A stretch of DNA of 64,000 nucleotides. It comes from a virus. Under the pieces are notes generated by a model that was given only the letters and a program-made list of their open reading frames with translations, was not told the origin of the DNA and did no database searches. Location: IMG/VR virus record IMGVR_UViG_3300028581_000028, positions 1 to 64,000 of that record; one strand, given 5' to 3'. Both the position numbers and the translations under genes were made by a program. Below, piece by piece: positions 1 to 19,819 of the stretch. Position 1 is the stretch's first letter. Every line of letters starts with the position of its first letter.

Positions 1-103
1 ATTTATAACCAGTACCATCGGCATCGTAAAAAATATGCCCTTTATATTTATCGGAGGCTCTTTCTACCGTTACTCCATCTTTAGTTACTGCAGTTTTTTT
101 CAT
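1..103 (-). CDS. Partial ORF running off the window start (MKKTAVTKDG...FYDADG...), putative virion protein
   Basis: Hand-translated; ATG at 103 after an AT-rich leader; carries the FYDADG motif shared by neighbouring proteins. Confidence 0.6.
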   Translation of the reverse strand, partial: MKKTAVTKDGVTVERASDKYKGHIFYDADGTGYK

Positions 104-116
104 TTATTTTAATTTT

Positions 117-437
117 TTATAATCCAAATGCTACTGCTGGTACAACTCCGCAATCAACGAGAGTATATTGTCCCAGCCAATTTTTTTCATAACAGAGTCC
201 GTTTGCGTCTACCCAGTACGCACCATTCCAGTAAAAGCCACCGCCACCAATTACAAATGGTCTTCTTCCTCCACGATGACCACCAAAGTGTCCACCGCCA
301 CCGTGTCCGCCACGACCTCCACCGCCTCTATGTCCGCCTCCGCCTCTTACGTTGGATACAGTATCATCGCCATTAGATAACACTTCATTGGTTGTGTTTG
401 TTATCCGTATTATTGGGTAAGCTGTTATTATTTTCAT
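117..437 (-). CDS. Gly/Arg/His-rich small protein, putative virion core protein
   Basis: RGG/GGH-rich centre after VSNVRG; N-terminus MKIITAYPII nearly identical to that of 7958..8584. Confidence 0.7.
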   Translation of the reverse strand: MKIITAYPIIRITNTTNEVLSNGDDTVSNVRGGGGHRGGGGRGGHGGGGHFGGHRGGRRPFVIGGGGFYWNGAYWVDANGLCYEKNWLGQYTLVDCGVVPAVAFGL

Positions 438-447
438 AATTAATTTA

Positions 448-609
448 TTATTTTGAATGCTTGGTTATATGCGAAAATAGGGCAGTTATACCCAATACGG
501 ATACAATAAGAGCAAGAGTTTGAATACGGTTGTGCCATAACATTTCCGTGCTTTTCTTTTCAAGACTTACGAGTCTTTCTTGTGTACTAATATCGGAATT
601 ATTTTCCAC
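448..609 (-). CDS. 53-aa membrane protein (coiled coil plus one TM helix), not in ORF track
   Basis: Hand translation from GTG: MENNSDISTQERLVSLEKKSTEMLWHNRIQTLALIVSVLGITALFSHITKHSK; fills the gap between neighbouring genes. Confidence 0.55.
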   Translation of the reverse strand: MENNSDISTQERLVSLEKKSTEMLWHNRIQTLALIVSVLGITALFSHITKHSK

Positions 610-1168
610 CTTTTTTCATTTTTTTATAAACTACAAAACCGATGATTCCGAGTACTACTACAACACCGACTGCTATGCCGATTTTTGCTCCAGTACTCAT
701 TCCCTTTTCAGATCCTCCGCTTGGAGTGTCTTTTGCGAGTGCGTTTGCCAAAGCAATATCTCCAGCAACACCTTTCTCACTTGCCTTTGCAGACATCTGC
801 TGGGCTTTTGCCTGATCACGTTTCGAGAGATTTTTCTGCAGTTGACCTTGTGCTTTTAAGCCTCTGGCTTCTGCTTTTGACTTAGCTCTTAAGTCTCTTC
901 TTGCGTTTCGTCTTGCCCTACTTTTTGCATCCAGCCCAAAGAGGTTATAATAATCCTCTTCGTTTCCCTCGCCATCGAGGTGCGAAAACACCCTTTGACC
1001 AATAAAGGCTCTGGTTGTTTTGTCTTTGAAGCCACCCTCTGCACAAAAGAATTCATTTAAGTCTCTGCCATTATAACTCTGTAATCCCTTTGTATATACA
1101 TAGTCAAGACGTGTCCCATCAATGCCTTGAGTAAACTCGTCCTTTAGGTTTGAATTGCTATAATTCAT
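599..1168 (-). CDS. Membrane-anchored virion protein with Arg-rich segment
   Basis: C-terminal KGMSTGAKIGIAVGVVVVLGIIGFVVYKK anchor; acidic N-half followed by RARRNARR. Confidence 0.75.
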   Translation of the reverse strand: MNYSNSNLKDEFTQGIDGTRLDYVYTKGLQSYNGRDLNEFFCAEGGFKDKTTRAFIGQRVFSHLDGEGNEEDYYNLFGLDAKSRARRNARRDLRAKSKAEARGLKAQGQLQKNLSKRDQAKAQQMSAKASEKGVAGDIALANALAKDTPSGGSEKGMSTGAKIGIAVGVVVVLGIIGFVVYKKMKKGGK

Positions 1169-1174
1169 AATCGG

Positions 1175-1792
1175 TTATTTTTTCTTAATTAATGTTTTGT
1201 AAATTATAAATAAAGCAACCATCACCGCTACCGTAATACCGATTGTGATCGCTGGATGTTCTTTGATAGTATCAACTCCTTTTTGTACTCCCTCGTTAAT
1301 AGCTTCCGTTACTTGCGTAAAAGTAGACTTGGCATAATCTGCCTCTTCTTTCCGCCTTCCCCGTAATAGTTCTTGTTGTTTTGGAGGTAATTTTTTGTTA
1401 TCGTTATAAGTACTGGTTACGATTGCGTCTGCCAGTTTATTTACATCCCCAGTTTTTGCAGATTCCCTAATCGCTGGTTTTGTAATACTACCGTAATTAT
1501 ACGCAATAGATAATAGGGCAGTACGAGCTGGTTCTGGAAGCTTGTTATAAGCATCACCTATTTGTCTTTTTACTACTGGCTCGAAATCTTGTTTAATTCT
1601 TCTGGCAATGTCTTTCTCTGCCATTTCTCGTGTTGTAACATCTGTTTTTACAACTTTTCGAAACGTACCATCTGGCAGAGTTATAGTATCGCTACCGTAT
1701 CCGAGTCTGTATGCGTTTACGTCCCAATAAGGCTTACTGCTATAACCCTCGAATTTTTTTATAAAATTTGCTACGTTATCGTAAAATGCCAT
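1175..1792 (-). CDS. Phage-type lysozyme (GH24-like) with C-terminal TM anchor
   Basis: IKKFEG...YWD...LGYG, ALLSIAYNYG and RRKEE motifs; hydrophobic C-terminus plus KKK. Confidence 0.8.
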   Translation of the reverse strand: MAFYDNVANFIKKFEGYSSKPYWDVNAYRLGYGSDTITLPDGTFRKVVKTDVTTREMAEKDIARRIKQDFEPVVKRQIGDAYNKLPEPARTALLSIAYNYGSITKPAIRESAKTGDVNKLADAIVTSTYNDNKKLPPKQQELLRGRRKEEADYAKSTFTQVTEAINEGVQKGVDTIKEHPAITIGITVAVMVALFIIYKTLIKKK

Positions 1793-1801
1793 AATATTTT
1801 T

Positions 1802-2404
1802 TTATTCTATATCATTTATAAACAATGCTATTTTCTCTCCACCTTGTTTTATTAATGAATTTGGAGGACTCCCAGCCCGTAAGCCTTCCTTTGTCCTCGA
1901 TTCAATAGCCACTTGCACAAGTTGATTGGGATCAGTTATTCCTTTTGCAACTGCAGATGAGAAGTCGGAAGCAAATTTTTGAAACCACCCCGATCCGTTC
2001 CACGTTGCATAAATAAAATTAAACAACAACCGCTTGTCGCTGTTTACAATATCTCTCGCATTGGGAGATAAATAACGCTTTGCTAAAGCCTCATATTCTG
2101 GCAACATTATATTGCCAACATAGACCTTTAACTGTTTTGCTAAAGCACCTCCTTTGTAATTCCATTTCCAGAGTGTCTTTGCATTAGCGTCATCGATTGC
2201 CTTCCAAAATAAAACTCCAGATGGGGTTAAGTTGATCCGCCCCCCAGCTTTGCGATCTATTCCGAACATAGTTTCGCCACTATTAGCATAACGCTGGTCT
2301 TTTACACGACCATCTGCTAACATTAAAGGATGATAATAACCGCCCTCAAGTTTATCAATAACTAAAGCGGTTATTCCCTTAAATATGTTTACGTCTACTG
2401 CCAT
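1802..2404 (-). CDS. Glycoside hydrolase family 108-like muramidase
   Basis: EGGY...GETMFGI signature near the N-terminus. Confidence 0.65.
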   Translation of the reverse strand: MAVDVNIFKGITALVIDKLEGGYYHPLMLADGRVKDQRYANSGETMFGIDRKAGGRINLTPSGVLFWKAIDDANAKTLWKWNYKGGALAKQLKVYVGNIMLPEYEALAKRYLSPNARDIVNSDKRLLFNFIYATWNGSGWFQKFASDFSSAVAKGITDPNQLVQVAIESRTKEGLRAGSPPNSLIKQGGEKIALFINDIE

Positions 2405-2484
2405 CGTTAATCTTGCTAACTAATTGATACACTCCGAGAATTACCGCAATGTGATTGCGTAATAAGAAGTACTTAAAGCGGACA

Positions 2485-3195
2485 CTACGGAGCAATGTTG
2501 GTGTAATTCTTACTTTGTAAATAAACGTCTTTCAACGCTTTGCCATAAGAATTAGTCTCATTATTCCAAGTATAGTCCGTTACGATTGCCTTTGCCTTAA
2601 TCCAGCCTTGTTTACTGGTATTTCCAACGAATTTAGCAACTGGTTTAGCCCCATCCATAACGATCTTTCCGATAACGAATTTTTTATCTACTGCTGGGTA
2701 GTTAAAAGCGTTATCTGTAGACTGCTTTGGATAAAGGTTATCGCCATTCTTAAAGTTATTGCTTTTCGCTGGGGTTGTTAGCTTAAGGTATTCAGCACCG
2801 TAAACCGCCCAAGCCTTTTGTGTAGACGTTCCGAAGTTACCGTAACCGCTTCCTTTTAAAAGGAAATTGCCATTAGTTAATGCTGGATTTTTAGCACCAA
2901 CCCATTTTAAACCTTTTTTATCAAGCCAGTCTTGGAACTTCATTACTTCGGAAGGACTCGAAGGCATACCATCACCTTGTGTCACTACTGGTAGGGGTGT
3001 ATTTACGATAACCTCTGGTGTAGTATTCACATTTGTCTGGTTTTGGTCTACCTTCGGCAGTTCCGATGTTAATAAGGCATCGGCTTTTTCTTTTTCCTTT
3101 GCCTTTTTACGTTTCCACAAAAGATAACCGCCTATTGCTCCCAGTACCAAAAAACTTGCGATAACGAGTATCGTCTTTTTTGTGTTTGGTTGCAT
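2485..3195 (-). CDS. N-terminally membrane-anchored protein with peptidoglycan-binding-like domain
   Basis: TM at about aa 8-27 followed by a KRKK stretch; VMKFQDWL...GNFGTSTQKAW resembles PG_binding_1. Confidence 0.6.
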   Translation of the reverse strand: MQPNTKKTILVIASFLVLGAIGGYLLWKRKKAKEKEKADALLTSELPKVDQNQTNVNTTPEVIVNTPLPVVTQGDGMPSSPSEVMKFQDWLDKKGLKWVGAKNPALTNGNFLLKGSGYGNFGTSTQKAWAVYGAEYLKLTTPAKSNNFKNGDNLYPKQSTDNAFNYPAVDKKFVIGKIVMDGAKPVAKFVGNTSKQGWIKAKAIVTDYTWNNETNSYGKALKDVYLQSKNYTNIAP

Positions 3196-3200
3196 AGTTC

Positions 3201-3428
3201 TTATTTCTTAGTAACGGTTTCTTTGGTTGGTTGGCTTTTTTTAGCTTTGATACTTGCAGAAATGATTGCACCAGCAACTGCTCCAACAAGAGTACCAACA
3301 ACTAATTTCCAAGTTTTGTCAGCTTTGATAACTTTTTTAGTTACAAGGAATCCAGCAACTGCTCCAATTCCAGTACCAATAAGGTTGTGTTGACCTTTTG
3401 CGATGATTTCTCTTACTTTGTTTGCCAT
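3201..3428 (-). CDS. Small two-TM glycine-zipper membrane protein
   Basis: GTGIGAVAG and GTLVGAVAGA helices with a basic tail. Confidence 0.7.
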   Translation of the reverse strand: MANKVREIIAKGQHNLIGTGIGAVAGFLVTKKVIKADKTWKLVVGTLVGAVAGAIISASIKAKKSQPTKETVTKK

Positions 3429-3472
3429 TTTCGTTTGATTTTAATTAAACACTATTTATTTATTACAGAATT

Positions 3473-3979
3473 TTAAAATTTATAAGGTATTTTCCTTGCG
3501 GTCAATATTTGATTTATTTTTTGCACATACACTGCATCCATATCATCAACAATTGCGGATGACATAGTACCCTTAAAATCTGGAGCTGGATTCCCTTTGC
3601 CAGAAGCTACTGTACGGACACCATAACTTTGCATAACTCCCAAGAGATCAAGATAAGTTGGGATAGACATAAACGCTTGTAAGATTGCTAAGTTATCCGT
3701 TCCCCAGCCATCCATTGCAGTATGAATTTTATTCGCCAACCCCAGCCATTGAGCTTTTGTTAATTTGGGCTTCTCGCCTTTTGACATTAACTGTACCAAC
3801 TCGTTATTAATTTGTTGGTCTTGTTGTCTTTCGCCTTGTTCTTTAACTAAATCGGTACTCTTTTTATAAATTTTATATGCGACTATTAGTACAGCACCAA
3901 CAACTACAACACCAATTAAACCCTTCGCCCAAGTTGGCATCCCAGTAAAACTCTCCTTTGCGAAATTTTGCTTTGCCAT
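3473..3979 (-). CDS. Membrane-anchored protein with annexin-like repeat
   Basis: N-terminal TM; ANKIHTAMDGWGTDNLAILQAF matches the annexin endonexin motif A-M-x-G-x-G-T-D. Confidence 0.6.
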   Translation of the reverse strand: MAKQNFAKESFTGMPTWAKGLIGVVVVGAVLIVAYKIYKKSTDLVKEQGERQQDQQINNELVQLMSKGEKPKLTKAQWLGLANKIHTAMDGWGTDNLAILQAFMSIPTYLDLLGVMQSYGVRTVASGKGNPAPDFKGTMSSAIVDDMDAVYVQKINQILTARKIPYKF

Positions 3980-3991
3980 ATTTTTATTTTT

Positions 3992-5938
3992 TTATTGCCA
4001 TACGTTTTTATCTGTAGCCTCGTTATTTACCCCAGTAGCACCCTTCCAAATAGTCATATTATCAGAAGTGTTCAAGTAAGCGGTTAATAGGGTTGAACCC
4101 ACATTAGCAACCGAGTGATTGGCGATAATATCACCAGCCAATGCCACTGCTACGGGAGTAAATACAAACTGAAGCGTATTTCCGACTACTGTATTATCTG
4201 GCATAAATATGTGGGGAATTACTCCACCCAATCCTACGATATTGTTTATGTTTTTACCCGTTGAATTAAGGCATTTAAACTCCCCAATAAAAGATGTATC
4301 GGCTGGGAGTGTTAAAACACCCAAAGCATAAATTAAAGGATCGTTTAAATCTAAAGTATATTGCCAGTTGCTATAACTATGCCTTACGCATCTTTTTGTA
4401 TATACTACCGATACGATTTTAATATATACAAAAAAGTCTGATATATCACAATTCTCAACCTCTCCAGTTAGCGTTATACTATCCGACTCAAAGATAGCTT
4501 TGTGTTTTAATCGGTTCATTATAAAATTTCCGTTAACCGATACGTTTATCTGTACCTTAGACTGCCCGATTAAATTATTATAAGTAACATCTCCGCCACC
4601 AGCAATAGAACCTACCGTTAAAATAGAAGACTCTACAATCGTATTGTTTTCTACAAATCTTCCGTTTGAGGTTGTTGTATTTATTAAAAGTGAACTTCCA
4701 TTCCCAGCCACGTAATTGAATCTTACGCTACCCCTTGTATCGTTTAATCGTATTGCACCACCAGAATTTATTAAATTAAACGATACAATTCCAGCTCCTA
4801 TCGCCCCACCGCTATATGTATCGTCTTCAAGTAGTCCATCGTGTATAATATTAGAATCAAAATTCACGACACTATTTCTGCAATTCATAATACAACTACC
4901 AACCAGCTTATTTTTTGTAACAACATCTCTACCCCATTGAAAAAATAAAAGGGAGTTGAGTAATCCACGAATAAATAAGTCGACCTCATTCAACCGTTTA
5001 TCTGCCCGATAAATTATTGTATTGGTAAATACGTTGTATTTAACGAAATCTGTTTCGAGAATATATCCAGTAGTATCGCTTTTTGCCAATACAGACCAGT
5101 TTACTAAGTCGGTATGTGGGGCTGTTCCCCAAGCACCAGTTAAATTAACGTAATGGAGGTTATTCCAGATAACCACATTTCCGATTACTACAGGCTGAAC
5201 ATTAGCCGACCATAAGCCCAGTTGACCAGCAAAGCCAACAACTCCCGTATAAACTCCTACTCCTTGAAAATCGGGGTTCAAAAACAATCCAGCACCTTGT
5301 ATAGATACGGAGTTGTTTGTTACACCTTGAATAACGACACCCAAGTCTGCAAATGAGTTATCGGTTATTTTATAAAATTGTCCTTTAACTACAGTAAAGC
5401 CAGATATCAATGCCAACATTTGTGCATTTGTTAGCGTTACAATAGAAGCACCATCAATAGTTATTACGGTTGCATTATTTATCGCATCATCCGAAGCAAC
5501 AACTCCAGCACCAACAAAATTTAATCTTAACCGTTGCGGTAATGCCAAGCCCTCGTCTTGTATAACGTGTCCAGCTACACCGCCACCGCCACCAGCAGTT
5601 ACACTATACTGCCCAATATAATTAGTATCGCTTGTAACACGCACCACAAAACTTGATGCGTTTGCGGTCATTACATAACTCGATACCCCGTTAATTAAAA
5701 AGCCAAGAGGGGCATCAATAGTGATGTTGTTTATAGAAGCATTATTGCTTTTGTCTACAATATATAATTTCCATTGGGTACTCCATTTTCCTTGAGGTAT
5801 TCCAAGCAATTGAATACCAACCGCACCAGCAGAAGTATCACATAAAAGAACACTATCGTCTTGGCGAACAAGGTTAACCAGCCCGATAATCGTTCTTATG
5901 TTATTCCCGTATTTTTGTTCAAATAAGTTGGTAGCCAT
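3992..5938 (-). CDS. Spike / receptor-binding-like protein with probable beta-helix
   Basis: 648 aa, rich in N/V/G/I; periodic Asn-ladder repeats in the C-half; fibre-type LNFVGAGV motif. Confidence 0.55.
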   Translation of the reverse strand: MATNLFEQKYGNNIRTIIGLVNLVRQDDSVLLCDTSAGAVGIQLLGIPQGKWSTQWKLYIVDKSNNASINNITIDAPLGFLINGVSSYVMTANASSFVVRVTSDTNYIGQYSVTAGGGGGVAGHVIQDEGLALPQRLRLNFVGAGVVASDDAINNATVITIDGASIVTLTNAQMLALISGFTVVKGQFYKITDNSFADLGVVIQGVTNNSVSIQGAGLFLNPDFQGVGVYTGVVGFAGQLGLWSANVQPVVIGNVVIWNNLHYVNLTGAWGTAPHTDLVNWSVLAKSDTTGYILETDFVKYNVFTNTIIYRADKRLNEVDLFIRGLLNSLLFFQWGRDVVTKNKLVGSCIMNCRNSVVNFDSNIIHDGLLEDDTYSGGAIGAGIVSFNLINSGGAIRLNDTRGSVRFNYVAGNGSSLLINTTTSNGRFVENNTIVESSILTVGSIAGGGDVTYNNLIGQSKVQINVSVNGNFIMNRLKHKAIFESDSITLTGEVENCDISDFFVYIKIVSVVYTKRCVRHSYSNWQYTLDLNDPLIYALGVLTLPADTSFIGEFKCLNSTGKNINNIVGLGGVIPHIFMPDNTVVGNTLQFVFTPVAVALAGDIIANHSVANVGSTLLTAYLNTSDNMTIWKGATGVNNEATDKNVWQ

Positions 5939-5940
5939 TC

Positions 5941-7146
5941 TTATAATAATTTTTTGCTTGTCCTTGCTTCGTTAAAAAACAACTTTCTTAAATCTCTCTG
6001 CTCGTAGAAAAACGCAAATGTCACCGTATTCCCAGCGAGTACCTTATATTCGAGTACATCCATCCCATTAGGAATAAATGGTCGGTTTAGGTTACAGTCG
6101 ATATTAAAAAATACAATATCGTTTGCAACCTGCATATTATCCACTTGTAATTGCAACTGGATTGGATCGATTTTTTGTTTACCCTCAGAGTTTTTATTTT
6201 TAAAAATCAAGGGTTGGTTTATTTGTTGTTGAAGCGTTGCTCCAGCAAAAGTAAACTTAGCATTCGGGATGTGCATTGGGTTACCGAGTATGTTAAACAT
6301 AACATCAGAATAACTCACCAACCCCCCAGCTACTTGTATTTTGTTGTTTAAATTTCCAGATGTAGAGTATAAATAATCAAGAGGCATAGATGGGTTAAAT
6401 AACTCAACTACAAAGTCTAATGCCGAGTTGTTATTCATTGTAAAGATTAACTCTTTTAGCTTTTTACCTTTGTAGTACCCAACATTTTTTACGTTCAAAG
6501 AACATTTATCGCCCTTTAATATCATATCGTCCAGTCCTTGAACGATCACGGTTTGATCTCTTGGTACAAGAACCCTCTGAAGAGTTTTTGAGTTTTTGCC
6601 CTTGCCAACTAATTTTGCACGTCCCCCAACCAATCGTCCACTATCATCCACCATCCCAACTCCAACCTTTTTTGTCAAAGGCTTTCTTGTTTTTGGGCGA
6701 ACTTGCATTGGTCTGCTTAAGGCTGGGTTTTTTTTGCGAAGTATCGGCTGGTTACCAACGGGTACTCCTCTGCGGACTGTTTTTATGGCTACATTGCCAG
6801 TTTTCCTTCGAACCTTGCCCTTCTTTGCAGTCCGATTAACACGTCTTAGCGAAGTTTTAAAGTCGCCTTTAAACTGGCTAAAATCGATATCTAAAATATA
6901 ATCATCAGGGTTTTCGTCCTCGCTACCATCGTAAACCTCTTCGTTATCATCATCGGCTACTTGTTGGTCGCCCCCTGCATCGTAATATTCTTCATCGCCC
7001 TCTGCCTCAAAATACCTTTCTCCGCCTTGTTCTATGACAAAAGCATCATCCCCACTCTCTACTTCGCTTTGAGAGGCGATGCCATCATTAAGAAAATCAT
7101 CAAAAATGTCTTCTTGGTAAGGGTTATATGTATTTGTATCTGCCAT
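5941..7146 (-). CDS. Capsid-like protein 2 (acidic and basic N-terminal extension plus beta-rich domain paralogous to 13304..14056)
   Basis: C-terminal ~160 aa align by eye with 13304..14056. Confidence 0.55.
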   Translation of the reverse strand: MADTNTYNPYQEDIFDDFLNDGIASQSEVESGDDAFVIEQGGERYFEAEGDEEYYDAGGDQQVADDDNEEVYDGSEDENPDDYILDIDFSQFKGDFKTSLRRVNRTAKKGKVRRKTGNVAIKTVRRGVPVGNQPILRKKNPALSRPMQVRPKTRKPLTKKVGVGMVDDSGRLVGGRAKLVGKGKNSKTLQRVLVPRDQTVIVQGLDDMILKGDKCSLNVKNVGYYKGKKLKELIFTMNNNSALDFVVELFNPSMPLDYLYSTSGNLNNKIQVAGGLVSYSDVMFNILGNPMHIPNAKFTFAGATLQQQINQPLIFKNKNSEGKQKIDPIQLQLQVDNMQVANDIVFFNIDCNLNRPFIPNGMDVLEYKVLAGNTVTFAFFYEQRDLRKLFFNEARTSKKLL

Positions 7147-7149
7147 ATT

Positions 7150-7935
7150 TTACATTAATTGAGCATATTCTTGATTTTCAAACCGTTTAATGTAGTCATT
7201 AATTTTTCGCATCCTTGCTATATTTTCGTCTGTTTGTGCCTTTAAAAACACATTTGCAAAAACACATATAGCATCTATTTTTGAAAAACCGCTTCCTAAA
7301 TATAGATATAAAGCATTAATGTCTGCACCCGTCTCGTGTCCTATTTGTAAGCCGATCTTCGGGTTTTTCCATTTGTGACAATACTCGTGAAGTACGATGA
7401 TAAACCTCATCGGGATTGTGTAGGGTACAAAACGATAAGCACTCGCTTCGATAAGACCAGTAGAATGCCCAATTCTTGCTGGGGTGCTTAACGGAGCTTT
7501 AGACATAAAGTCTCTTATGACGGGGAAGTATTTTATATTAAATCTCGCATCGGGACTCTGGTAAATAGTGCCATTTTGTTTTGGCTTTTCAAATCCACAT
7601 TTTTGCGAAAAGCTAATATCTAACTGCATAAACTCTTTTGTACCCTCGTCCAGCCAGATATTAAATTTCCTTAATGGTACTTCTTCGACTTTCATTTCGA
7701 AGCTTTCATCTCTCGTATCAACCGCATTAAAACAACCGATAAGTATTCTTTTTGGAGTGACTGGGAGTGAAAAATAAATCATCCTCGATCCATCAACAAC
7801 TATCTCCCTATCCGCATATTTACTATTATTACGAGCAACCTCTTGTACCCAGACACGAAACTTTTTCTTGCCACTACAGTTAATAGTGACATTCAACCTC
7901 ATCTCTCTGTTATTGCTTTCGTGTATTGCAAACAT
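7150..7935 (-). CDS. Zincin-like metalloprotease, candidate virion maturation protease
   Basis: IVLHEYCH (HExxH) followed by ETGAD (ExxAD third-ligand motif). Confidence 0.7.
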   Translation of the reverse strand: MFAIHESNNREMRLNVTINCSGKKKFRVWVQEVARNNSKYADREIVVDGSRMIYFSLPVTPKRILIGCFNAVDTRDESFEMKVEEVPLRKFNIWLDEGTKEFMQLDISFSQKCGFEKPKQNGTIYQSPDARFNIKYFPVIRDFMSKAPLSTPARIGHSTGLIEASAYRFVPYTIPMRFIIVLHEYCHKWKNPKIGLQIGHETGADINALYLYLGSGFSKIDAICVFANVFLKAQTDENIARMRKINDYIKRFENQEYAQLM

Positions 7936-7957
7936 TACTGTTTATTTTTTTTTGTTA

Positions 7958-8584
7958 TTATTTTGCTACTGCTGGGGCTGGTGTGCTTGGCTTTTTAGTT
8001 GCAAAGTAGATAATTGCACCTACTACTACAACGATCCCAACTCCTATTGCGATTTTAACTCCAGTACTCATTCCTTTTTTAGCAGTTGGATCTTCTGCTG
8101 GGGCATTTGTTGATACAAGGTCTGCCTCAGATGATTGTCCTCCACCACCGCCTCCGCCCATATTTAAGCCGAGTAATTCGCCCAGTTTATCAATTAAACC
8201 AGATTCCTTTGCTTTACCCCATACACCTTTGGCTTTATCCCAGTAATATCCTTTAGCTTTTTTCTCCTTAATTTCTTTTTCAGAAGGGGTGCTGGAACTT
8301 GTTCCGCTTTCAAATGCTGGTTTACCAGTTATATTGCCACCAGAGGAGGCTACTCCGCCAAGAGCAGTCCAAAATTTCTCAAAGTCTGCTCCGTAAGTTT
8401 TATAAGCCTTTTTAGATTTTGCTCCGTATTTACCATCGACCTTAAGGTTTGCACCTTTAGAGTTTGCAAAAATATGAAATTGTTTTACTTGTGCAGAATT
8501 CTCGCCATCAATATTTAAGTAGAAATCTTGGTAGTTCTCTCTTTTCTTATTGATAATAACTGGATATGCGGTTGTTATTTTCAT
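7958..8584 (-). CDS. Membrane-anchored protein with peptidoglycan-binding-like domain
   Basis: LKVDGKYGAKSKKA motif; KKGMSTGVKIAIG TM anchor. Confidence 0.7.
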   Translation of the reverse strand: MKITTAYPVIINKKRENYQDFYLNIDGENSAQVKQFHIFANSKGANLKVDGKYGAKSKKAYKTYGADFEKFWTALGGVASSGGNITGKPAFESGTSSSTPSEKEIKEKKAKGYYWDKAKGVWGKAKESGLIDKLGELLGLNMGGGGGGGQSSEADLVSTNAPAEDPTAKKGMSTGVKIAIGVGIVVVVGAIIYFATKKPSTPAPAVAK

Positions 8585-8612
8585 TGTATTTTTGTTTTTT
8601 TAGATTTCATTT

Positions 8613-9485
8613 TTATAAACCACCAACTGAATATTTAAAGCCAGTTTTATTTATATTTCCGCCCATTTTAAACTGTACCTCATCTCTTGAGTTTTCGACC
8701 ACCTCGCCAGTATTTACATAATTAAAATCAACATCGGCTTTTTTCCCAATTTTAGCAATGCCTCGTTTTTTTGCTACTGCAAGGTTTGGTGCGTAAACGT
8801 AAGTATATAGCTGGTCTGGTTTGTTTTTTCCAAAGACATTAAAAATCGTTTGTCCTACATAAGATTTGGGTACAAGACTTTGAGTTGTTTTATCTATAAT
8901 AAGCTCCTCGCCCTTTAATATTTCCAGTACAGCGTTTATGTCGTTGCGATCAACTCTGTTTTCGTGAATAAACTTCATTATACTGTATGCCTTCCGAAAT
9001 TTATCAGCCTTGTGATATGCCTCAACCTCAACTGTAAACCTTGTAAAAGAATAACTATTATCAACTCCAGTATAATATTGAATTTCGCCAAGTTGTTCGA
9101 AATAATTAGCATTCGGTCTCTCCTCTAAAAAGAACCGTATGGTTGCGTAAGGGTTATTGCTTCCAGATGGGCTAAATAGTAAATAAAAGAGTTTTTTACC
9201 GCCTAAAACACCGCCTCTGACATATTTATCGTAATGTCCCTCAACGTAAGTGTCAATAGTCCAGCCCTTCTCCTCAAATTTATTAATTAAAGCAGTTTCC
9301 ATATCGGTATCGTTCTCGAAAGATGTTTCTAACTGGCTTAACGATAACTCGGTGTAAGCATTCCACAAGTCTTTAATATTAGCACTCTTATCGTCAAAAA
9401 CAAACCCAAACATATCGACCATTTTGCTAACAATTGCAAAAAACTCGTTATCGGTCAATGTTAATATTTTGGTTTTTACTCCCAT
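8613..9485 (-). CDS. Hypothetical protein with C-terminal FKMGG...YSVGGL tail
   Basis: 290-aa ORF in operon context. Confidence 0.7.
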   Translation of the reverse strand: MGVKTKILTLTDNEFFAIVSKMVDMFGFVFDDKSANIKDLWNAYTELSLSQLETSFENDTDMETALINKFEEKGWTIDTYVEGHYDKYVRGGVLGGKKLFYLLFSPSGSNNPYATIRFFLEERPNANYFEQLGEIQYYTGVDNSYSFTRFTVEVEAYHKADKFRKAYSIMKFIHENRVDRNDINAVLEILKGEELIIDKTTQSLVPKSYVGQTIFNVFGKNKPDQLYTYVYAPNLAVAKKRGIAKIGKKADVDFNYVNTGEVVENSRDEVQFKMGGNINKTGFKYSVGGL

Positions 9486-9486
9486 T

Positions 9487-9978
9487 TTATTTTTTACTAA
9501 ATCTGAATACTAAATAAGCACCCAGTAAAGCCCCAGCAACTGCTCCAATGATTTTATTTTTTTGGGTAGGCAATGCGATCCAACCTTTCTTTTCGGCAAA
9601 GTACACGCCAGCGAAGCCAACTATTCCGCCAACGATAACTGCGTCCAAGTATTTTACATTGTCTTTGGATGTTTTAGACGATTTTGTTTTGTCTACAGTA
9701 ACCTTAACTTTACTCTCAGACTGACTATCACCCTCCGCATTGCTGATACCAGTACCAGCGTTAATGTCCTTTGTAATGATTTGTTTTACGCAAGATAAAG
9801 GCACTACAACCACCCCTTTGTATAACACAAAGGCTGGTTTACCTTTTGAATCTTTAAGCTCACCGCTAATAATTTCTCCTTTTTTAAAGACCTTTGCTTT
9901 AATTTGCGTTGGTCTATGAGGCATCCCAGTAGATACAACATAGGGAGATTTAAAGTCTTTTGTTGCTACAAAGTCCAT
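9487..9978 (-). CDS. Membrane protein with two C-terminal TM helices
   Basis: Two glycine-rich hydrophobic helices; ISNAEG motif. Confidence 0.7.
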   Translation of the reverse strand: MDFVATKDFKSPYVVSTGMPHRPTQIKAKVFKKGEIISGELKDSKGKPAFVLYKGVVVVPLSCVKQIITKDINAGTGISNAEGDSQSESKVKVTVDKTKSSKTSKDNVKYLDAVIVGGIVGFAGVYFAEKKGWIALPTQKNKIIGAVAGALLGAYLVFRFSKK

Positions 9979-10085
9979 TATTTCTTAATTTTTACTTTTT
10001 TTATTTCTTTTTTCGACTTCTTGTATTGGCTATAAACCAATATTCCGATGCCGATAATCACAAGTACTCCAAGAACCTTTTTCAT
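9978..10085 (-). CDS. 35-aa TM plus poly-Lys micro-protein, not in ORF track
   Basis: Hand translation MKKVLGVLVIIGIGILVYSQYKKSKKEIKKVKIKK; stop overlaps the next start (TAATG). Confidence 0.7.
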   Translation of the reverse strand: MKKVLGVLVIIGIGILVYSQYKKSKKEIKKVKIKK

Positions 10086-10087
10086 AG

Positions 10088-10813
10088 CTACTTTTTCTTT
10101 TTAATAGCATAAACAACACCAACAATAAGTGCTATTGCGACCAGACTCCCTACAACTATTAACACGGTTTTGGTTGTTTTGGCTTTACGTTCATTGGCTT
10201 TAGCAATCTCTTCTTGTTTGGCTTTTTTCTGTTCCATTATTTGCTGGATCATCTGCCTCTTTGCCTCTTGTTGTTTTGCCAGAGTTTCGCTACTCCCAAA
10301 CTTTTTCATTTTTTGGGTGTCCATTATTTTGTTGGCGATACCACCACCAACTTCTAATAAACTGCCAATCAGTCCTCCACCAGCATAATAAAACTCGTCA
10401 TCTGATTCGCCATCGGCATCTAAGTAGTCCTCGTTCACAGTATCACTCGTATCATCGTATTGATTTGCATCAAAATATTCGTACATTACCTTATAGGTAG
10501 CCTTCATCCCCGAATCGTTAATTGCGGATTCTCCATCAGCTCCAACGACTTGATTTTTATGGCTGATAAGAAAAGATGCCCCCAGCAATAAGTTACGATT
10601 GCTGGGTGCATTATCTATAAAGGCATTAACAAGCTGGATATCGGATGCGTTATCGGGTACTGGGATATTTGCATTTCTCAATACTTCGATAAAGTCCGAT
10701 TTATCTTTAATAAGATAAATCGCCAATTCACGCATAATAACCCTATTGGCTTTCTGCGTATCTCGGCTTTTTATATATTTGGCGAGTTCGCCAAAAAACT
10801 TGCTATTATCCAC
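10088..10813 (-). CDS. Membrane-anchored coiled-coil virion protein
   Basis: C-terminal TM plus KKKK; GADG and YLDADG motifs. Confidence 0.75.
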   Translation of the reverse strand: MDNSKFFGELAKYIKSRDTQKANRVIMRELAIYLIKDKSDFIEVLRNANIPVPDNASDIQLVNAFIDNAPSNRNLLLGASFLISHKNQVVGADGESAINDSGMKATYKVMYEYFDANQYDDTSDTVNEDYLDADGESDDEFYYAGGGLIGSLLEVGGGIANKIMDTQKMKKFGSSETLAKQQEAKRQMIQQIMEQKKAKQEEIAKANERKAKTTKTVLIVVGSLVAIALIVGVVYAIKKKK

Positions 10814-10817
10814 CTTA

Positions 10818-12068
10818 TTATTTTTTCTTTAGTACATACTTATTAATCAACACAATTGCTACTACACCAATTGCTACACCAATGGCTATTTTAACACCAG
10901 TCGACATACCCTTCTTTTTGCCTTCGGCATTCGAGAAGTTTAAGTCAAATTTGCGACTTGCTGGTGCATCGTAATCGTCTTTATCATCGATCCCTATATA
11001 TCCAGTATCTCCGTTTACACCATTAGATTCCTCTGCTGGTATAACGATTGAGTCTTGTGCAATATCTGGGTTTAATTCTGCATCAACTGGAGTTTCTGAT
11101 CCGCCTTCGGAACGCTTTTGTGCCAATTTTCTTGCTGGTGCGTTTGCTAAAGCTACCTTCATACGATCACGTTTAGCCAAGCGTTTAGCTTTTCTAATTT
11201 CACGTCTGCTGTTTCTTTCTGCTTTGCCACGACCTCTTGCACTTGAATAACCCTGCAGTTTTTCTTCCAACATCTTAACACGGGCATTGCGAGTTGCAAT
11301 CTGCTTTCTAAGGCTTTCTTTCATTGGTTCGCTTTTAGCGTTTGCCAATTTAAGAGTAAGGCGTTGGATATATTCTTTTTGCCATTCGATCTTTTTAGTT
11401 ATTTCTTTTACCGTAGGATGTATTTTTTGTTTCACGCCATCCACGTTCAAGAAATAATCTTCAGCACCGCCAAGTTCAGATGTGAAGGAGTCTTCAGCAC
11501 CATTAAATTCGTTGGTCGGATCAAATACTGCCCCGCCATCAAATCCAGATTCCTCTTCGTATCCGCCTTCATCAGCGTAACCTTCTTCTCCGCCTTTTTC
11601 TTCATAGCCTTCTTCTTCAGCGTAGCCTTCTTCTCCGCCTTGATCCTCAACATATCCGCCACCCTGATCTTCAGCATAACCACCGCCCTGATCTTCAGCA
11701 TAACCGCCCTGATCTTCAGCATAACCGCCCTGTTCTTCCATTAACGGTTCTTCTTCTTCCCCCATAGCTTTACGAGCTAATTTGCGAGTTTTTCTTGTAT
11801 CTTTTTGGGTTTGTTTTGCTTCGAGACGATTTGCTCTCATCCCTTGTCGTGTGGCTTGTTTATCGGCTCTACGAGAAAGCCGATTCGATGCCCTTGTCCT
11901 TTTTCTTTCATCACGTCTTTGGATTCGTTCCATTCTGCGTTTTTGCCTTCTGGCACGTCCACGTCCCCTCGCTTGTGAGAACTCACCAAATGCTTCCTCG
12001 AAAGTAGCAACTTGGATCGAGTTATCGCCAGTATTACGGGGAGATAGTGTAATAATTGTTGGCTTCAT
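10818..12068 (-). CDS. Membrane-anchored protein with alternating Arg-rich and acidic blocks
   Basis: RGRGRARRQKRR block, acidic EDQGGY repeats, KKGMSTGVKIAIG anchor. Confidence 0.8.
   Translation of the reverse strand: MKPTIITLSPRNTGDNSIQVATFEEAFGEFSQARGRGRARRQKRRMERIQRRDERKRTRASNRLSRRADKQATRQGMRANRLEAKQTQKDTRKTRKLARKAMGEEEEPLMEEQGGYAEDQGGYAEDQGGGYAEDQGGGYVEDQGGEEGYAEEEGYEEKGGEEGYADEGGYEEESGFDGGAVFDPTNEFNGAEDSFTSELGGAEDYFLNVDGVKQKIHPTVKEITKKIEWQKEYIQRLTLKLANAKSEPMKESLRKQIATRNARVKMLEEKLQGYSSARGRGKAERNSRREIRKAKRLAKRDRMKVALANAPARKLAQKRSEGGSETPVDAELNPDIAQDSIVIPAEESNGVNGDTGYIGIDDKDDYDAPASRKFDLNFSNAEGKKKGMSTGVKIAIGVAIGVVAIVLINKYVLKKK
11635..11740 (-). repeat. Coding tandem repeat of 21-24 nt (E-D-Q-G-G-(G)-Y-A, about 5 copies)
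   Basis: ccgccctgatcttcagcataa units repeated. Confidence 0.85.
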
Positions 12069-12089
12069 ATTTTAATATTTAAGGTTAAA

Positions 12090-12563
12090 TTATTTGCTTG
12101 GAGCTATTTTAACACTTTGGTGTTTGTCTACATAAGTGCCAAACAAAAATCCTGCAACTGCAACAACTGATGTCACCATTGCGGTCTTGCCACCTTTGTA
12201 TTTTTTGTATTTAGAAAATCCGAAACCGATACCAGCTCCGATTAATCCATAAATTACAGCATTTTTAGTAAATATTCTCTTGTGCATTGGGATATTTACT
12301 ACCGTTGCAGACTGCTGGGCATCTGCTCCTAAAGTTACTTCAGTTACTTCCATTGGTTTGATTTTTTTAAAATATATTAATTGTTTATCCTTCGTTGCAA
12401 ATAGTTTGTAAGTAAATTTTAGACCTCTTCTTTTGCCCTCTACCAGTTTTATATCGCCATCTAATTGAGTACCCTTCTTAATGATTTTATCACTCTCGGT
12501 AAAATTATGATGTTCTAAATTTGGTATAAGAACTTCAGCGTCCTCGATCAATTCTACTTTCAT
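12090..12563 (-). CDS. Membrane protein with two C-terminal TM helices
   Basis: Same architecture as 9487..9978; LGADA motif. Confidence 0.7.
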   Translation of the reverse strand: MKVELIEDAEVLIPNLEHHNFTESDKIIKKGTQLDGDIKLVEGKRRGLKFTYKLFATKDKQLIYFKKIKPMEVTEVTLGADAQQSATVVNIPMHKRIFTKNAVIYGLIGAGIGFGFSKYKKYKGGKTAMVTSVVAVAGFLFGTYVDKHQSVKIAPSK

Positions 12564-12569
12564 ATCTTG

Positions 12570-13220
12570 TTATCTGTTTGTTTTTAAATACAACACCATC
12601 CCAAATATTGCGACTACGCTAACAATTCCAAGTACTACAACTGTTTCCGTTGCAATTCTTTGTACTGGGATACTTTGTTCGCTACCTCCCTCTGCATTAG
12701 AGTATGTAGCATTTTTTGAACATCCGCCACAATTTGAACATCCGCCACTACAGTTTGACATTGTTTGTTTTCTGTAAGGGCAATTTGGACGTTTTTGGTA
12801 ATTTGGGTTACCATCCATATTTATATATCTTTTACAATAAGGGCAATTGGGATTTCCGCAAGGGGGATGTCCTTCGAATTCTGCCCAGCCTTCGTGTAAA
12901 ACAGTTTCCTTTAAAACCTTGTTTTGCTCATCCGTTTTTATTGGTTCTGGATTAGACTGTAGCGGTTCAACCTTAACTTTAGGATTGTTGTATTTTAATA
13001 TAAATTCCTTATGCGGATGAATCTCCGCAAATTCTTTTTCCAAGTCGATCTTGGCTGGGGACGAAGCATAAAGTTTGGCTAACTTAATCTCCAAATCCTT
13101 AACATCCGTTGCGTTAAGCCCCGTATGTTTTTTTAATAAACCCTTTGCTTTATCGGTTGAGGCATTTGCCAGTACCGAGAGAAGCGTTGAATATTCAGAC
13201 TTTTTCCTTTTATCATTCAT
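12570..13220 (-). CDS. Membrane-anchored Cys-rich protein
   Basis: CGNPNCPYC, NCPY and CSGGCSNCGGC; YSNAEG; C-terminal TM. Confidence 0.7.
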   Translation of the reverse strand: MNDKRKKSEYSTLLSVLANASTDKAKGLLKKHTGLNATDVKDLEIKLAKLYASSPAKIDLEKEFAEIHPHKEFILKYNNPKVKVEPLQSNPEPIKTDEQNKVLKETVLHEGWAEFEGHPPCGNPNCPYCKRYINMDGNPNYQKRPNCPYRKQTMSNCSGGCSNCGGCSKNATYSNAEGGSEQSIPVQRIATETVVVLGIVSVVAIFGMVLYLKTNR

Positions 13221-13245
13221 TACGTTTATCCTTTAAAAGTTTTTT

Positions 13246-13278
13246 AAAAAAGGGATAAGGCATAACCCTATCCCTTTT
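13246..13278 (-). terminator. Rho-independent terminator after the putative major capsid gene
   Basis: Minus-strand AAAAGGGATAGGG-TTATG-CCTTATCCCTTTTTT hairpin ending in a U-tract. Confidence 0.75.
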
Positions 13279-13303
13279 ATTTATAGGAAAATCCAGTAAT
13301 GAA

Positions 13304-14056
13304 TTAGCTCCTCGAGATGCCTTTTACATCCTGAGTTGTCTGGATAATAACTGGAGCTACGTTTTTACCGCTTAAGCGTGGGGCTCTTGCGGAGTTAATC
13401 GATGATCCTCCGTTCAGTTTAGCTTTTCCGCTAATAACTGAGATTGGGAACATAGAGATTGTAAGTAATGCACCAGCTAAGAGGTTAAAGGTTAAATAAG
13501 TGTTTCCATCAACTGTAACAGGCTTGGTAACATCGATGATGTCTGGCTGTTGTTGATAAGCGTCACGCATAATACTTAAATTCAACGGGGTTGAATAAGT
13601 TTTACCGTTTGCATCAACGTGGTTGATATTAACAGTTACTTGTAACTGGGCAGGGGTTGTACATTGAAATCTCCATTTGCCAATTTTGAAGAATTTGTTA
13701 TTTGACTGGGCGAGTAAACGACCATAAGTACCGCCTTGTAAGTTGGTCAATACGATACCAACGGGGTTTCCGTACTGGGGTCCAGCTCCAAACCAATCGT
13801 TGTAGCCAAATAATACTGCGATTAAAGCACCTACGGTTGTGTTTTCGTAAGAAACAACATAAGGATCGGATACGACTTGAGGTCTTCCACTTGCAAATGA
13901 CATATCGTCACCATCGATTAAAGACATATCGTCTCCATCAAAGTTGTCCATATCATCAAAATAAGCGAAATCACCCTCGTTATCGTATGAATCGATACCA
14001 GACATTCTTTCTGTACCGTTAATTGCTAATAGCAATTCTTTTTCTTTTGCTTTCAT
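13304..14056 (-). CDS. Putative major capsid protein (single jelly-roll-like), with acidic N-terminal extension
   Basis: Beta-strand-like ~150-aa core; near the front of the structural operon, with a structured leader and its own terminator; paralog at 5941..7146. Confidence 0.5.
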   Translation of the reverse strand: MKAKEKELLLAINGTERMSGIDSYDNEGDFAYFDDMDNFDGDDMSLIDGDDMSFASGRPQVVSDPYVVSYENTTVGALIAVLFGYNDWFGAGPQYGNPVGIVLTNLQGGTYGRLLAQSNNKFFKIGKWRFQCTTPAQLQVTVNINHVDANGKTYSTPLNLSIMRDAYQQQPDIIDVTKPVTVDGNTYLTFNLLAGALLTISMFPISVISGKAKLNGGSSINSARAPRLSGKNVAPVIIQTTQDVKGISRS

Positions 14057-17743: not shown

Positions 17744-18607
17744 CTAAACTTTATTTCCGTAATATTGTTGTGCATATTGTTTTGTCAGACCTTGCATAGC
17801 ATCCTCAATCGGACAACCGTGCATATCTTTGTACTCACGCAAATACTTTTTATTGGTATTTAGATACTGTTTACACGCATCATCAAATTCCTTTCGGGTA
17901 AATTTGCCCTCGATTTTATTTGCAAAATTGTGTATGTAAACAAAAAACCGCTTGTCGCCACCGAAGTATCTGTTATTAACGATTAACTGGGCTATTTTAA
18001 ATAATGTAGGGTTACTTACTTTGCCCTTAATATCGTTTACGTTATCTGCTTGGTAATGCATCCTTACCCAGCGACTATTTTGCCAAATTCTCGGTTCTAC
18101 TGGTCTTAAAGACTGGTACGAAATCAAAACATCAACTGCACGATGCCTTAAGTTTACAATACCACCAACGATCTCTTCCATGAAGGTAACTGATAGGATG
18201 TAGGTGTTTATATCCTCCAGTACAAGCATACCGTTTTTGTAAATCTTTAACAAGTACTCTACCGCCTCTTTCTTTTCTTTAATACCCAAGTTTTTAGCAT
18301 CAATCCTTCGGCATTCTATAATATCCGAGTGACACCATTTTTCCACATCTGACAAAGCGATCCTTCGTACCTCGAAATTCTCGATATCGTTTTTCGCAAA
18401 TTGTTCTTTTGTGTACTCCCCATTGGTGTCGAAAATTAAACATTTTCTACCCTTTACTTTATTATAAAACTTATCCTTAACGTACTCTCGGATAACGTAC
18501 ATATTAAGATAGGTTTTTCCGACTCCTTGTATCCCCGTACAAGTCATCATACCAGCCTCTCTTGTGCCGACTGGCTTTATTTTATTCATTACTTCTTTCG
18601 ACTGCAT
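17744..18607 (-). CDS. A32/P9-like genome packaging ATPase (FtsK-HerA superfamily)
   Basis: Walker A GIQGVGKT, LIFD, Walker B MLVLED, and LRHRAVDVLISYQ (Arg finger RH plus strand-ending Q) in a 287-aa standalone protein. Confidence 0.75.
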   Translation of the reverse strand: MQSKEVMNKIKPVGTREAGMMTCTGIQGVGKTYLNMYVIREYVKDKFYNKVKGRKCLIFDTNGEYTKEQFAKNDIENFEVRRIALSDVEKWCHSDIIECRRIDAKNLGIKEKKEAVEYLLKIYKNGMLVLEDINTYILSVTFMEEIVGGIVNLRHRAVDVLISYQSLRPVEPRIWQNSRWVRMHYQADNVNDIKGKVSNPTLFKIAQLIVNNRYFGGDKRFFVYIHNFANKIEGKFTRKEFDDACKQYLNTNKKYLREYKDMHGCPIEDAMQGLTKQYAQQYYGNKV

Positions 18608-18611
18608 AATT

Positions 18612-19805: not shown

Positions 19806-19819
19806 ATATTGTTTTTTAA

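Follow-up and report, generated by a model that had tools for sequence, protein, structure and literature searches.

Genomic organization of the motif-carrying module

The window analysed here is the first 64 kb (64,000 nucleotides) of the 84,313-base IMG/VR record IMGVR_UViG_3300028581_000028, for which CheckV estimates a completeness of 61%. All genes of the window lie on the minus strand, and its G+C content is approximately 37%. Positions 1-14056 hold a gene module of 19 open reading frames (ORFs; 4464 amino acids), which encode a capsid-like protein, tail-anchored proteins, a tripartite protein, a spike-like protein, lysis-like proteins and an HExxH protein that is a candidate processing protease (hereafter the zincin; Table 1). 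A six-residue motif ending in Gly recurs in these products. A first-pass annotation had written it as Phi-x-x-[A/Phi]-[DE]-G and had proposed a shared cleavage site or an assembly signal. The motif is best explained as a short linear recognition signal that about ten families of proteins, all encoded in a single conserved module, have in common, and its carriers are probably virion proteins.

The module showed no match by megablast to 50,697 deposited phage records. Searches against PHROGs, Pfam and NCBIfam gave nothing for almost all ORFs in the first 20 kb, the exceptions being a lysozyme and a weakly matched ATPase, and no capsid, portal or terminase family was recognised in the module. A full-text literature search turned up no paper on this virus group or motif. 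Using the capsid-like protein as query, 11 syntenic loci were retrieved from IMG/VR on contigs of 19 to 146 kb. The gene order common to these relatives comprises the ATPase, the 250-amino-acid capsid-like protein, tail-anchored proteins, the 261-amino-acid HExxH protein, the tripartite acidic/basic/beta protein, the spike-like protein and lysis genes.

Table 1. Features of the motif-carrying module and its surroundings (aa, amino acids; TM, transmembrane)
Feature	Positions	Strand	Remarks
Start of contig-end gene, FYDADG at 14-31	1-103	-	Cut by contig end
106-aa protein, leader MKIITAYPII, VSNVRG at 342-359 (residues 27-32)	117-437	-	
189-aa tail-anchored protein, FFCAEG at 1034-1051, FSHLDG at 971-988, basic middle, GMSTG anchor	599-1168	-	
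Phage lysozyme, C-terminal TM anchor	1175-1792	-	PHROGs match
Second muramidase-like protein, EGGY motif	1802-2404	-	
Three small TM proteins	within 1175-3979	-	
Spike-like ORF	3992-5938	-	In the window
Spike-like copies in the 146-kb relative (G001)	69417-70691, 73682-74710, 79767-80318, 84362-84751, 86596-88491		
401-aa tripartite protein (acidic N-terminus, basic middle, beta-rich C-domain), YFEAEG at 6997-7014, YYDAGG at 6970-6987	5941-7146	-	
261-aa candidate processing protease (zincin)	7150-7935	-	Two domains: beta-sandwich (residues 1-90) and gluzincin-like C-domain
HEYCH of the zincin, residues 183-187	7375-7389	-	
ETGAD of the zincin, residues 201-205	7321-7335	-	
208-aa protein, leader MKITTAYPVI, YLNIDG at 8504-8521 (residues 22-27), C-terminal GMSTG anchor	7958-8584	-	
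163-aa protein, ~75-aa N-domain, ISNAEG at 9730-9747 in linker, two TM helices	9487-9978	-	
241-aa tail-anchored protein, VVGADG at 10532-10549, YLDADG at 10409-10426, FYYAGG at 10376-10393	10088-10813	-	
416-aa tail-anchored protein, leader MKPTIITLSP, five motif copies, two basic blocks	10818-12068	-	
FSQARG of the 416-aa protein	11964-11981	-	Directly before basic block 1
SGFDGG of the 416-aa protein	11532-11549	-	
FLNVDG of the 416-aa protein	11436-11453	-	
YSSARG of the 416-aa protein	11232-11249	-	Directly before basic block 2
FSNAEG of the 416-aa protein	10920-10937	-	Six residues before GMSTG anchor
157-aa protein, ~75-aa N-domain, TLGADA at 12318-12335 in linker, TM helices	12090-12563	-	
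216-aa tail-anchored protein, WAEFEG at 12870-12887, YINMDG at 12810-12827, YSNAEG at 12687-12704	12570-13220	-	
250-aa capsid-like protein	13304-14056	-	N-terminal helix, disordered acidic arm, beta-sandwich core from VSDPYV
Arm units of the capsid-like protein	FAYFDD 13952-13969, MDNFDG 13934-13951, MSLIDG 13910-13927, MSFASG 13886-13903	-	
Common GMSTG anchors	602-703, 7961-8074, 10821-10910	-	
Leaders	402-437, 8549-8584, 12033-12068	-	In the 106-, 208- and 416-aa proteins; related form in the last; 8549-8584 spans 12 codons
HerA/DUF87-like ATPase	17744-18607	-	Weak: DUF87/HerA E 8.9e-5, about cut-off; PHROG named terminase E 2.8e-5

Enrichment and consensus of the motif

All motif instances listed in the first-pass annotation were found at the ORFs named there. 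The pattern occurs 20 times in the ORFs of the module, against 5.4 ± 2.2 times in within-protein shuffles (maximum 17 in 500 shuffles), and four of the 20 matches are probably unrelated to the motif proper: IKKFEG in the lysozyme, IDKLEG and LMLADG in the second muramidase-like protein, and VITIDG in the spike-like ORF. By contrast, the remaining 86 ORFs of the window (15669 amino acids) contain 18 matches where 17.1 are expected. The anticipated enrichment over the other ORFs of the window, those at 42-64 kb included, is thus borne out. Shuffling confined to blocks of 15 residues gave 5.0 ± 2.1 matches (maximum 12 in 300 shuffles), and the reverse-order pattern occurs seven times in the module; local composition is therefore not the cause of the excess, and a pure composition effect was ruled out by these two controls. 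Codons vary between motif copies, indicating that the signal lies at the protein level. A repeat at the DNA level was rejected on the same ground.

A position weight matrix (PWM) trained on related contigs only found 14 sites in the module against 1.1 ± 1.1 expected, and three in the rest of the window against 2.85 expected. A matrix trained on the window only found 40 sites against 4.7 expected in the homologous modules of eight relatives, and five against 4.6 expected upstream of those modules. In nine related loci, the module downstream of the capsid-like gene contains 73 pattern matches (29.7 expected), and the genes upstream of it contain 15 (19.6 expected). In the 146-kb relative, 22 of 31 PWM hits fall at 70-100 kb, a zone that was partly in the PWM training; nine of the hits lie in the untrained part at 70-86 kb, which is the counterpart of DNA beyond the left end of the window. 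The motif-rich zone of this relative runs approximately 16 kb further downstream than the contig-end gene of the window.

The refined consensus is [DE]-[FYM]-S-[N/G/Y/S]-[A/F]-[D/E/...]-G, with the shorter form [FYM]-[SA]-[N/x]-[AF]-x-G. Its position is kept in seven orthologue groups, inside linkers of variable length and sequence, confirming in orthologue alignments the conservation that the first-pass annotation had asked about. Small residues (S, N, A and G) occupy the conserved positions, in which we infer a likeness to many protease sites. Other chemistry was considered for such acidic, D/E/N-rich units ending in G, namely metal binding by a DxDxDG-related loop, self-cleavage at Asn (N↓A, N↓F), or covalent cross-linking or modification of the site. 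The coats of nodaviruses and tetraviruses undergo Asn-dependent autocleavage at N↓A and N↓F, and the Asn-[Ala/Phe] pair of the motif recalls these sites. Nevertheless, we regard chemistry of this kind as very improbable. Position 1 is aromatic rather than Asp, which does not match DxDxDG, about two thirds of the sites in the clade of the window have G, Y, S or D in place of Asn, and the variants with Arg at position 5 lie in basic contexts. An EF-hand loop was rejected because of the aromatic position 1, and a C-terminal sorting signal of the sortase or exosortase kind because many copies are N-terminal or internal.

Placement of the motif in the carrier proteins

Copies of the motif lie directly before basic blocks (FSQARG before RGRARR, YSSARG before RGKAER and VSNVRG before GGGHRGG) or 6-16 residues ahead of membrane anchors (FSNAEG and YSNAEG, the latter being 16 residues before the TM helix of the 216-amino-acid protein). 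The placement at domain boundaries described earlier is therefore confirmed, and it extends to copies abutting basic blocks and to N-termini composed of a leader plus the motif. This placement is what processing sites show.

Orthologue comparisons locate the conserved copies precisely. In the 401-amino-acid protein, a conserved DIDFSQFKG (FSQFKG at 6865-6882) lies exactly at the boundary of the acidic and basic regions, and the position of D-F-S-x-[FLMI]-x-G is fixed in 9 of 9 sequences of the orthologue alignment. In the linker of the 163-amino-acid protein, which varies in length, x-S-[NSA]-[ALF]-x-G holds its position in 9 of 9 orthologues. Two positions, x[NG]F[DS]G and [FY]SN[AVSF]xG, are conserved among nine orthologues of the 241-amino-acid protein. 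Two motif positions are likewise conserved across eight orthologues of the 216-amino-acid protein, the flanks of which cannot be aligned. Orthologues of the 416-amino-acid protein keep both [FY]S[EQ]xRG followed by RGRARR near residue 30 and the motif before the anchor, and the strict motif core is present in 86% of the 14 members of its cluster vs. 4% in shuffles. [LM]GAD[AGS] is conserved in orthologues of the 157-amino-acid protein, with YSNADAG at that position in relative L002. The two copies of the 189-amino-acid protein match the consensus more weakly and fall under the PWM threshold.

Several carriers show further features. The 416-amino-acid protein is polyprotein-like, with a leader, a basic block, acidic GGYAEDQGG tandem repeats, a coiled-coil-like segment, a second basic block and an anchor. 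A 91-amino-acid ORF at 11447-11722, in another frame of the same strand within this gene, is probably an artefact of the repeats. The 216-amino-acid protein has a Cys-rich stretch (CGNPNCPYC ... CPY ... CSGGCSNCGGC, residues 120-167) among its motif copies, and the length of this stretch is very variable among orthologues. The middle of the 106-amino-acid protein, directly after VSNVRG, is almost pure Gly/Arg/His (GGGHRGGGGRGGHGGGGHFGGHRGGRRP), and this protein may bind nucleic acid or metal.

The carriers had been described as otherwise unrelated, which holds for some of them only. The 189-, 208- and 416-amino-acid proteins have in common a C-terminal anchor, K-K-G-M-S-T-G-[AV]-K-I-[AG]-I-[GA]-V, behind which come a TM helix and a basic tail. 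The anchor codons differ among the three genes, so the anchor does not stem from a recent DNA duplication. The 163- and 157-amino-acid proteins are weakly paralogous (blastp E 9e-4), both consisting of an N-domain of about 75 residues, the motif and two TM helices, and the 106- and 208-amino-acid proteins share a leader. The C-domain of the 401-amino-acid protein is weakly similar to the capsid-like protein (BLASTP E 2e-4 over 78 residues).

Shared N-terminal leader

A leader of about ten residues, M-[KE]-[IV]-[IT]-T-x-x-P-[IV]-[IVL], was identified in about a dozen small ORFs of the window and its relatives. The layout of these ORFs is the leader, 0-30 residues, the motif and then a Lys/Ser/Gly-rich sequence. 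ORFs combining leader and motif were found in relatives L001-L004, L006, L010, L011 and L094; the shortest forms read MNIITDKPVIFSNAEG and MISVETSNPVFSNVTG, both written up to the end of the motif. The family of the 416-amino-acid protein has a related start, M-x-x-T-I-I-T-L-x-P ... [FY]S[EQ]xRG. By analogy, the leader resembles a particle-targeting propeptide, with unrelated small proteins sharing the leader and then the motif.

Conservation of the motif in a distant clade

Viral contigs searched with one divergent zincin gave no hit, whereas a search based on an alignment of such zincins yielded 80 further loci, in which the zincin shares 33-49% identity with the clade member used as query. 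The capsid-like protein of this distant clade begins with M...ESFSNADG-F-x-D-D-L-S-F-T-G-E-D-F-F-S-A-N-G, followed by SQPYIV, and neighbouring proteins carry FFNAGG, FFNMSG, ANAIGR, SNATGC and similar sequences. Among 68 non-identical distant loci, [SA]NA.G occurs 114 times vs. 25.9 expected, a count that partly reflects orthology. F or Y precedes the core in 72 of 113 sites, and the swapped controls [SA]QA.G, [SA]DA.G, [SA]NA.A and G.AN occur at 0.6-1.0 times expectation. Counted by protein cluster, about 11 of 122 clusters carry the strict core in 20-86% of their members, compared with at most 7% in shuffles. Since the distant clade keeps both the motif core and the zincin, the two are co-conserved over a deep split.

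These data bear on the view that the motif has no function and is a decaying remnant of one duplicated tail-anchored gene, maintained by common descent and linker composition. Several carriers do have an anchor, a leader or weak overall similarity in common. However, the motif is conserved while the surrounding linker cannot be aligned, it is also present in the coat-like proteins, which are not membrane proteins, and it persists in a clade in which the zincin has diverged to the identities given above. Moreover, the local-shuffle and reverse-order controls do not reproduce its excess. A descent of this kind is accordingly very unlikely as the sole explanation.

The HExxH protein

The first-pass annotation had assigned an HExxH...ExxAD protease to positions 7150-7935. 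The signature is present and the predicted fold is consistent with a gluzincin, while the protease role itself is a prediction. The protein has 606 close homologues of near-constant length, and H183, E184, H187, E201, G203, A204 and D205 are invariant in an alignment of 19 sequences. A profile search yielded 610 zincin clusters at 50% identity. Of the best 150 of these clusters, 131 had a full-length representative, and every one of them has HExxH; the divergent representatives listed also retain E-x-[EG]-A-D. No motif copy is present in the zincin itself.

An AlphaFold2 (AF2) model of the zincin (mean predicted local distance difference test, pLDDT, 89.7; predicted template modelling score, pTM, 0.88) shows an N-terminal beta-sandwich of the CBM/GOLD/jelly-roll type and a helical C-domain, in which HExxH, the expected zinc-binding and catalytic motif, closes one helix and E201, the predicted third zinc ligand, opens the next (helix 201-214). 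The best structural match of residues 115-255 is Escherichia coli BepA, an M48 peptidase (Z 8.0, root-mean-square deviation, rmsd, 4.3, 116 aligned), followed by 3c37, a putative zinc peptidase (Z 6.4). The language-model feature neighbours of the C-domain in the Atlas also carry Peptidase_M48 (score 0.93). Foldseek of the model vs. the PDB returned nothing at E ≤ 0.001, and the zincin has no Pfam or NCBIfam match. With no family-profile match above cut-off, the protein is M48-like but is not assignable as a member of M48 (PF01435) or M56 (PF05569). By its signature we take it to be a genuine gluzincin (clan MA(E)); its shape resembles M48/M56, and its peptidase activity is predicted. The zincin is a core gene of the module and lies inside it in every relative seen, the distant clade included.

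Viral proteases of other classes were also searched. PHROGs gave no protease match in the module, and the Ulp1-like protease family (PF02902) and S78 (PF04586) were not found in five records (the window record and four relatives, ~434 kb), a search that did not include PF00770 and S77 (PF03420). The HK97 coat (PF05065) and the large terminase (PF03237) were likewise not found in the five records. Because these records are only 37-74% complete, the absence of HK97, terminase, C48 and S78 is not proven. These results concern the view that the motif is cleaved by another enzyme, either a host protease or a viral one encoded in the missing ~40% of the genome, to which the zincin would be unrelated. 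The incompleteness of the window record leaves room for such an enzyme, and the zincin and the motif are linked by co-location and co-conservation alone. However, the constant presence of the zincin within the module, the distant clade included, and the failure to find C48 and S78 proteases in the five records make another enzyme unlikely.

The capsid-like protein and particle type

The capsid-like protein has 675 homologues. Its arm contains three to five tandem units (M-S-Y-F-D-G-D-D ...) in the 11 relatives and in those homologues, approximately 60 of 120, for which the N-terminus was listed, and in the same sequences the last unit, [MF]-S-[YF]-A-x-G, lies 4-9 residues before an invariant SDPYV. 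The AF2 model has a mean pLDDT of 58.8, with values below 50 at residues 16-62, corresponding to the motif arm, and an eight-strand sandwich at residues 63-208. This medium-confidence model matches jelly-roll coats (nepovirus, STIV, FLiP, phiCjT23, PBCV-1 and PRD1) weakly, with Z scores of 4.8-6.6. The capsid-like proteins have no Pfam or NCBIfam match. In membrane-containing tailless viruses with jelly-roll coats (Varidnaviria-like), an FtsK/HerA-type packaging ATPase would be expected next to the coat genes; the candidate here is the weakly matched ATPase at 17744-18607. Seven module proteins are tail-anchored, and a tailless, membrane-containing virion is a reasonable but tentative reading.

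The tandem units could also mean that the motif is a docking or assembly signal without cleavage, that is, a peptide ligand added, for example, as a strand to a beta-sandwich, with another role for the zincin. The coat jelly-roll, the beta-sandwich of the zincin or a scaffold could serve as a hub that recruits membrane, core and coat proteins. The three to five copies with acidic flanks in the coat-like arm suggest avidity, positions 1 and 4 are hydrophobic, as in two-pocket docking motifs, the motif sits in disordered segments, and the extra N-terminal beta-sandwich of the zincin could bind peptides. Docking alone leaves unexplained, however, the motif copies at the exact junctions with basic blocks and anchors as well as the leader-motif-mature layout, and the conserved core is dominated by the small residues S, N, A and G. 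Docking is also compatible with cleavage, as T4 targeting sequences do both. We therefore consider docking without cleavage a serious alternative, albeit a rather unlikely one.

Virus group and other genes of the window

The largest group members identified are the L003 contig of 146,216 bases (74% complete) and a 235,546-base NCBI contig holding P0018 and P0127. The viruses that carry the module are big, uncultured bacterial viruses of a large, undescribed group, with contigs of up to 146-235 kb; their genomes are very large, perhaps near 200 kb. Protein clusters of the group number in the hundreds and come from metagenomes of freshwater, marine and other origin, and the IMG/VR contigs derive from freshwater and wastewater samples. 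Some group members sit in metagenome-assembled genomes (MAGs) labelled Chitinophagales, and the binning of one relative had produced a 'giant virus' MAG (GVMAG-S-1045057-15).

The ATPase (17744-18607) had no match among PDB sequences. It is preceded by a conserved 397-amino-acid ORF of unknown fold (17744-20281 region, minus strand), for which an Atlas look-up was uninformative, and a 366-amino-acid paralogue of this ORF lies at 23448-24548. A 153-amino-acid protein beside the ATPase contains a DnaA C-terminal helix-turn-helix (PF08299, E 2.7e-9). It may be that the ATPase is part of a DNA-handling unit, whether instead of a packaging role or in addition to one. The remainder of the window encodes polyvalent Strawberry-notch-type helicase proteins, AAA proteins, DNA methyltransferases and many small ORFs.

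Within the module, a 290-amino-acid ORF (8613-9485, minus strand) has no counterpart in the 11 related loci and is a lineage-specific insertion. The lysis-like cluster (1175-3979, minus strand) carries the refined motif in none of its proteins. The spike-like ORF of the window has no Pfam or NCBIfam match. The spike-like proteins have in common a conserved N-terminal module of approximately 60 residues (..CDTS.G.V.I.L..IP..W..) and variable C-termini. The several copies in the 146-kb relative suggest exchangeable receptor-binding proteins on one adaptor.

Proposed role of the motif

We tentatively favour, as somewhat short of probable, the reading that the motif is a processing site for the co-encoded gluzincin, in which the cutting, the enzyme and the bond are all predictions. 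The zincin would remove short N-terminal leaders (MKIITxxPII...motif) and fragment the acidic arm at the N-terminus of the capsid-like protein. It would also split basic blocks from the acidic pro-regions and, as particles assemble, detach ectodomains from their C-terminal membrane anchors. A hydrophobic residue at P1' is the usual preference of gluzincins. This would be in line with cleavage just in front of the A/F of the motif, whereas the leader layouts would fit a cut after its Gly instead. Processing by the zincin is favoured by the junction placement, the leader-motif-mature layout, the small-residue core, the redundancy of copies in the disordered arm and the core status of the enzyme.

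Several points weigh against this role. The structural match to M48 reaches only Z 8.0 with an rmsd of 4.3, a level to which chance arrangements also rise, and the zincin family profile produced only sub-threshold noise among PDB sequences, with no peptidase catalytic domain. The Pfam M56 profile was matched in 2 of 19 homologues, at an E-value of 0.025, which falls far short of threshold. The spacing of 13 residues from HExxH to the Glu is shorter than in thermolysin. Position 3 of the motif is variable and the capsid-arm units read M-S-Y-F-D-G, which makes a strict specificity model loose, and the tandem acidic-aromatic copies suit multivalent docking equally well. The recurrence of the motif results in part from paralogy, the zincin could act elsewhere, such as in host takeover or lysis, and the virion nature of the module is itself something we infer.

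The wider proposal is that the members of a widespread and undescribed lineage of very large, apparently tailless, membrane-containing bacterial viruses mature their particles by means of a gluzincin that cuts the motif in coat, basic core and tail-anchored proteins, the leaders serving as particle-targeting signals. We put this forward as doubtful but worth stating. If the motif is the cutting site of the zincin, the particle proteome and the ends of the mature proteins could be listed from sequence for the whole uncultured group. Motif-guided proteolytic maturation with targeting leaders would then have evolved a further time, on the basis of a metalloprotease and in viruses other than the tailed phages and the adenovirus/giant-virus lineages. 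It would be convergent with T4/phiKZ and adenovirus through a different enzyme class, and prokaryotic viruses of such architecture would thereby gain their first known proteolytic maturation system. For loading such particles with foreign proteins, the cassette of leader plus motif would offer a candidate tag. Even as a docking signal, the motif would be a rare case among short linear motifs in its conservation over about ten families of viral proteins and two deep clades.

Comparison with known systems

In the arrangement of an HExxH helix followed by a Glu-bearing helix, the zincin is similar to M48/M56 peptidases and minigluzincins (BepA 6sar, HtpX, BlaR1 and 3c37). It differs from them in that it shows no significant sequence similarity, reaches the Glu helix after only 13 residues and is virus-encoded. 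It also has an N-terminal beta-sandwich and lacks TM segments and a tetratricopeptide repeat domain. Neprilysin and thermolysin carry the signatures ENIAD and EAISD, respectively. The spacing of E201-T-G-A-D205 and its Ala before Asp are as in neprilysin ENIAD and similar to thermolysin EAISD, whereas the spacing of the elements in the zincin is much shorter and its overall fold is neither M4 nor M13. Among large DNA viruses, poxviruses also encode a metalloprotease, G1, which is needed for core maturation. G1 is, however, an M16-like enzyme with an inverted motif (HxxEH) and a fold unrelated to the zincin, and its substrates and motif are not established.

The adenovirus protease adenain (C5) recognises (M/I/L)-x-G-x↓G and (M/I/L)-x-G-G↓x, which likewise have a hydrophobic residue a few positions before Gly. 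In adenovirus pVI, a cut at IVGL↓G releases a peptide (PMC4246237). Adenain acts on coat and cement proteins and on precursors of the basic DNA-condensing core (pVI, pVII and others), and in the window the motif directly precedes basic blocks. Adenain is a cysteine protease, whereas here a C48-like gene was not found in the five records, the host is bacterial and the virus is unrelated in sequence.

The closest parallel in organization is found in T4 gp21 (L/I-x-E), phiKZ gp175 and SPN3US gp245 (S/A-x-E), where one virus protease acts through a very short motif on many unrelated particle proteins. These enzymes are serine proteases of the assemblin/S77-S78 kind from tailed phages with the HK97 fold, whereas the candidate here is a zinc gluzincin. 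The motif here has six residues and ends in Gly, many of the substrates would be membrane-anchored, the cleavage is predicted, and an HK97 coat, an S78 protease and a terminase were not detected in the five records. In T4/phiKZ-type systems, leaders common to unrelated proteins end in the motif, propeptides have redundant sites and the coat has an N-terminal pro-region (PMC9026906, PMC7411985). The propeptides of phiKZ carry several redundant cleavage sites (PMC9026906), similar to the tandem motif copies in the disordered arm here. The trait of a short N-terminus that is common to unrelated proteins and ends at the motif is present in the window virus. T4 capsid-targeting sequences are leaders of approximately 10-20 residues; they deliver internal proteins to the prohead, and gp21 cleaves them off at L/I-x-E (PMC9026906, PMC7411985). 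As in the window virus, a common leader and the motif are followed there by a 'mature' part of quite different composition.

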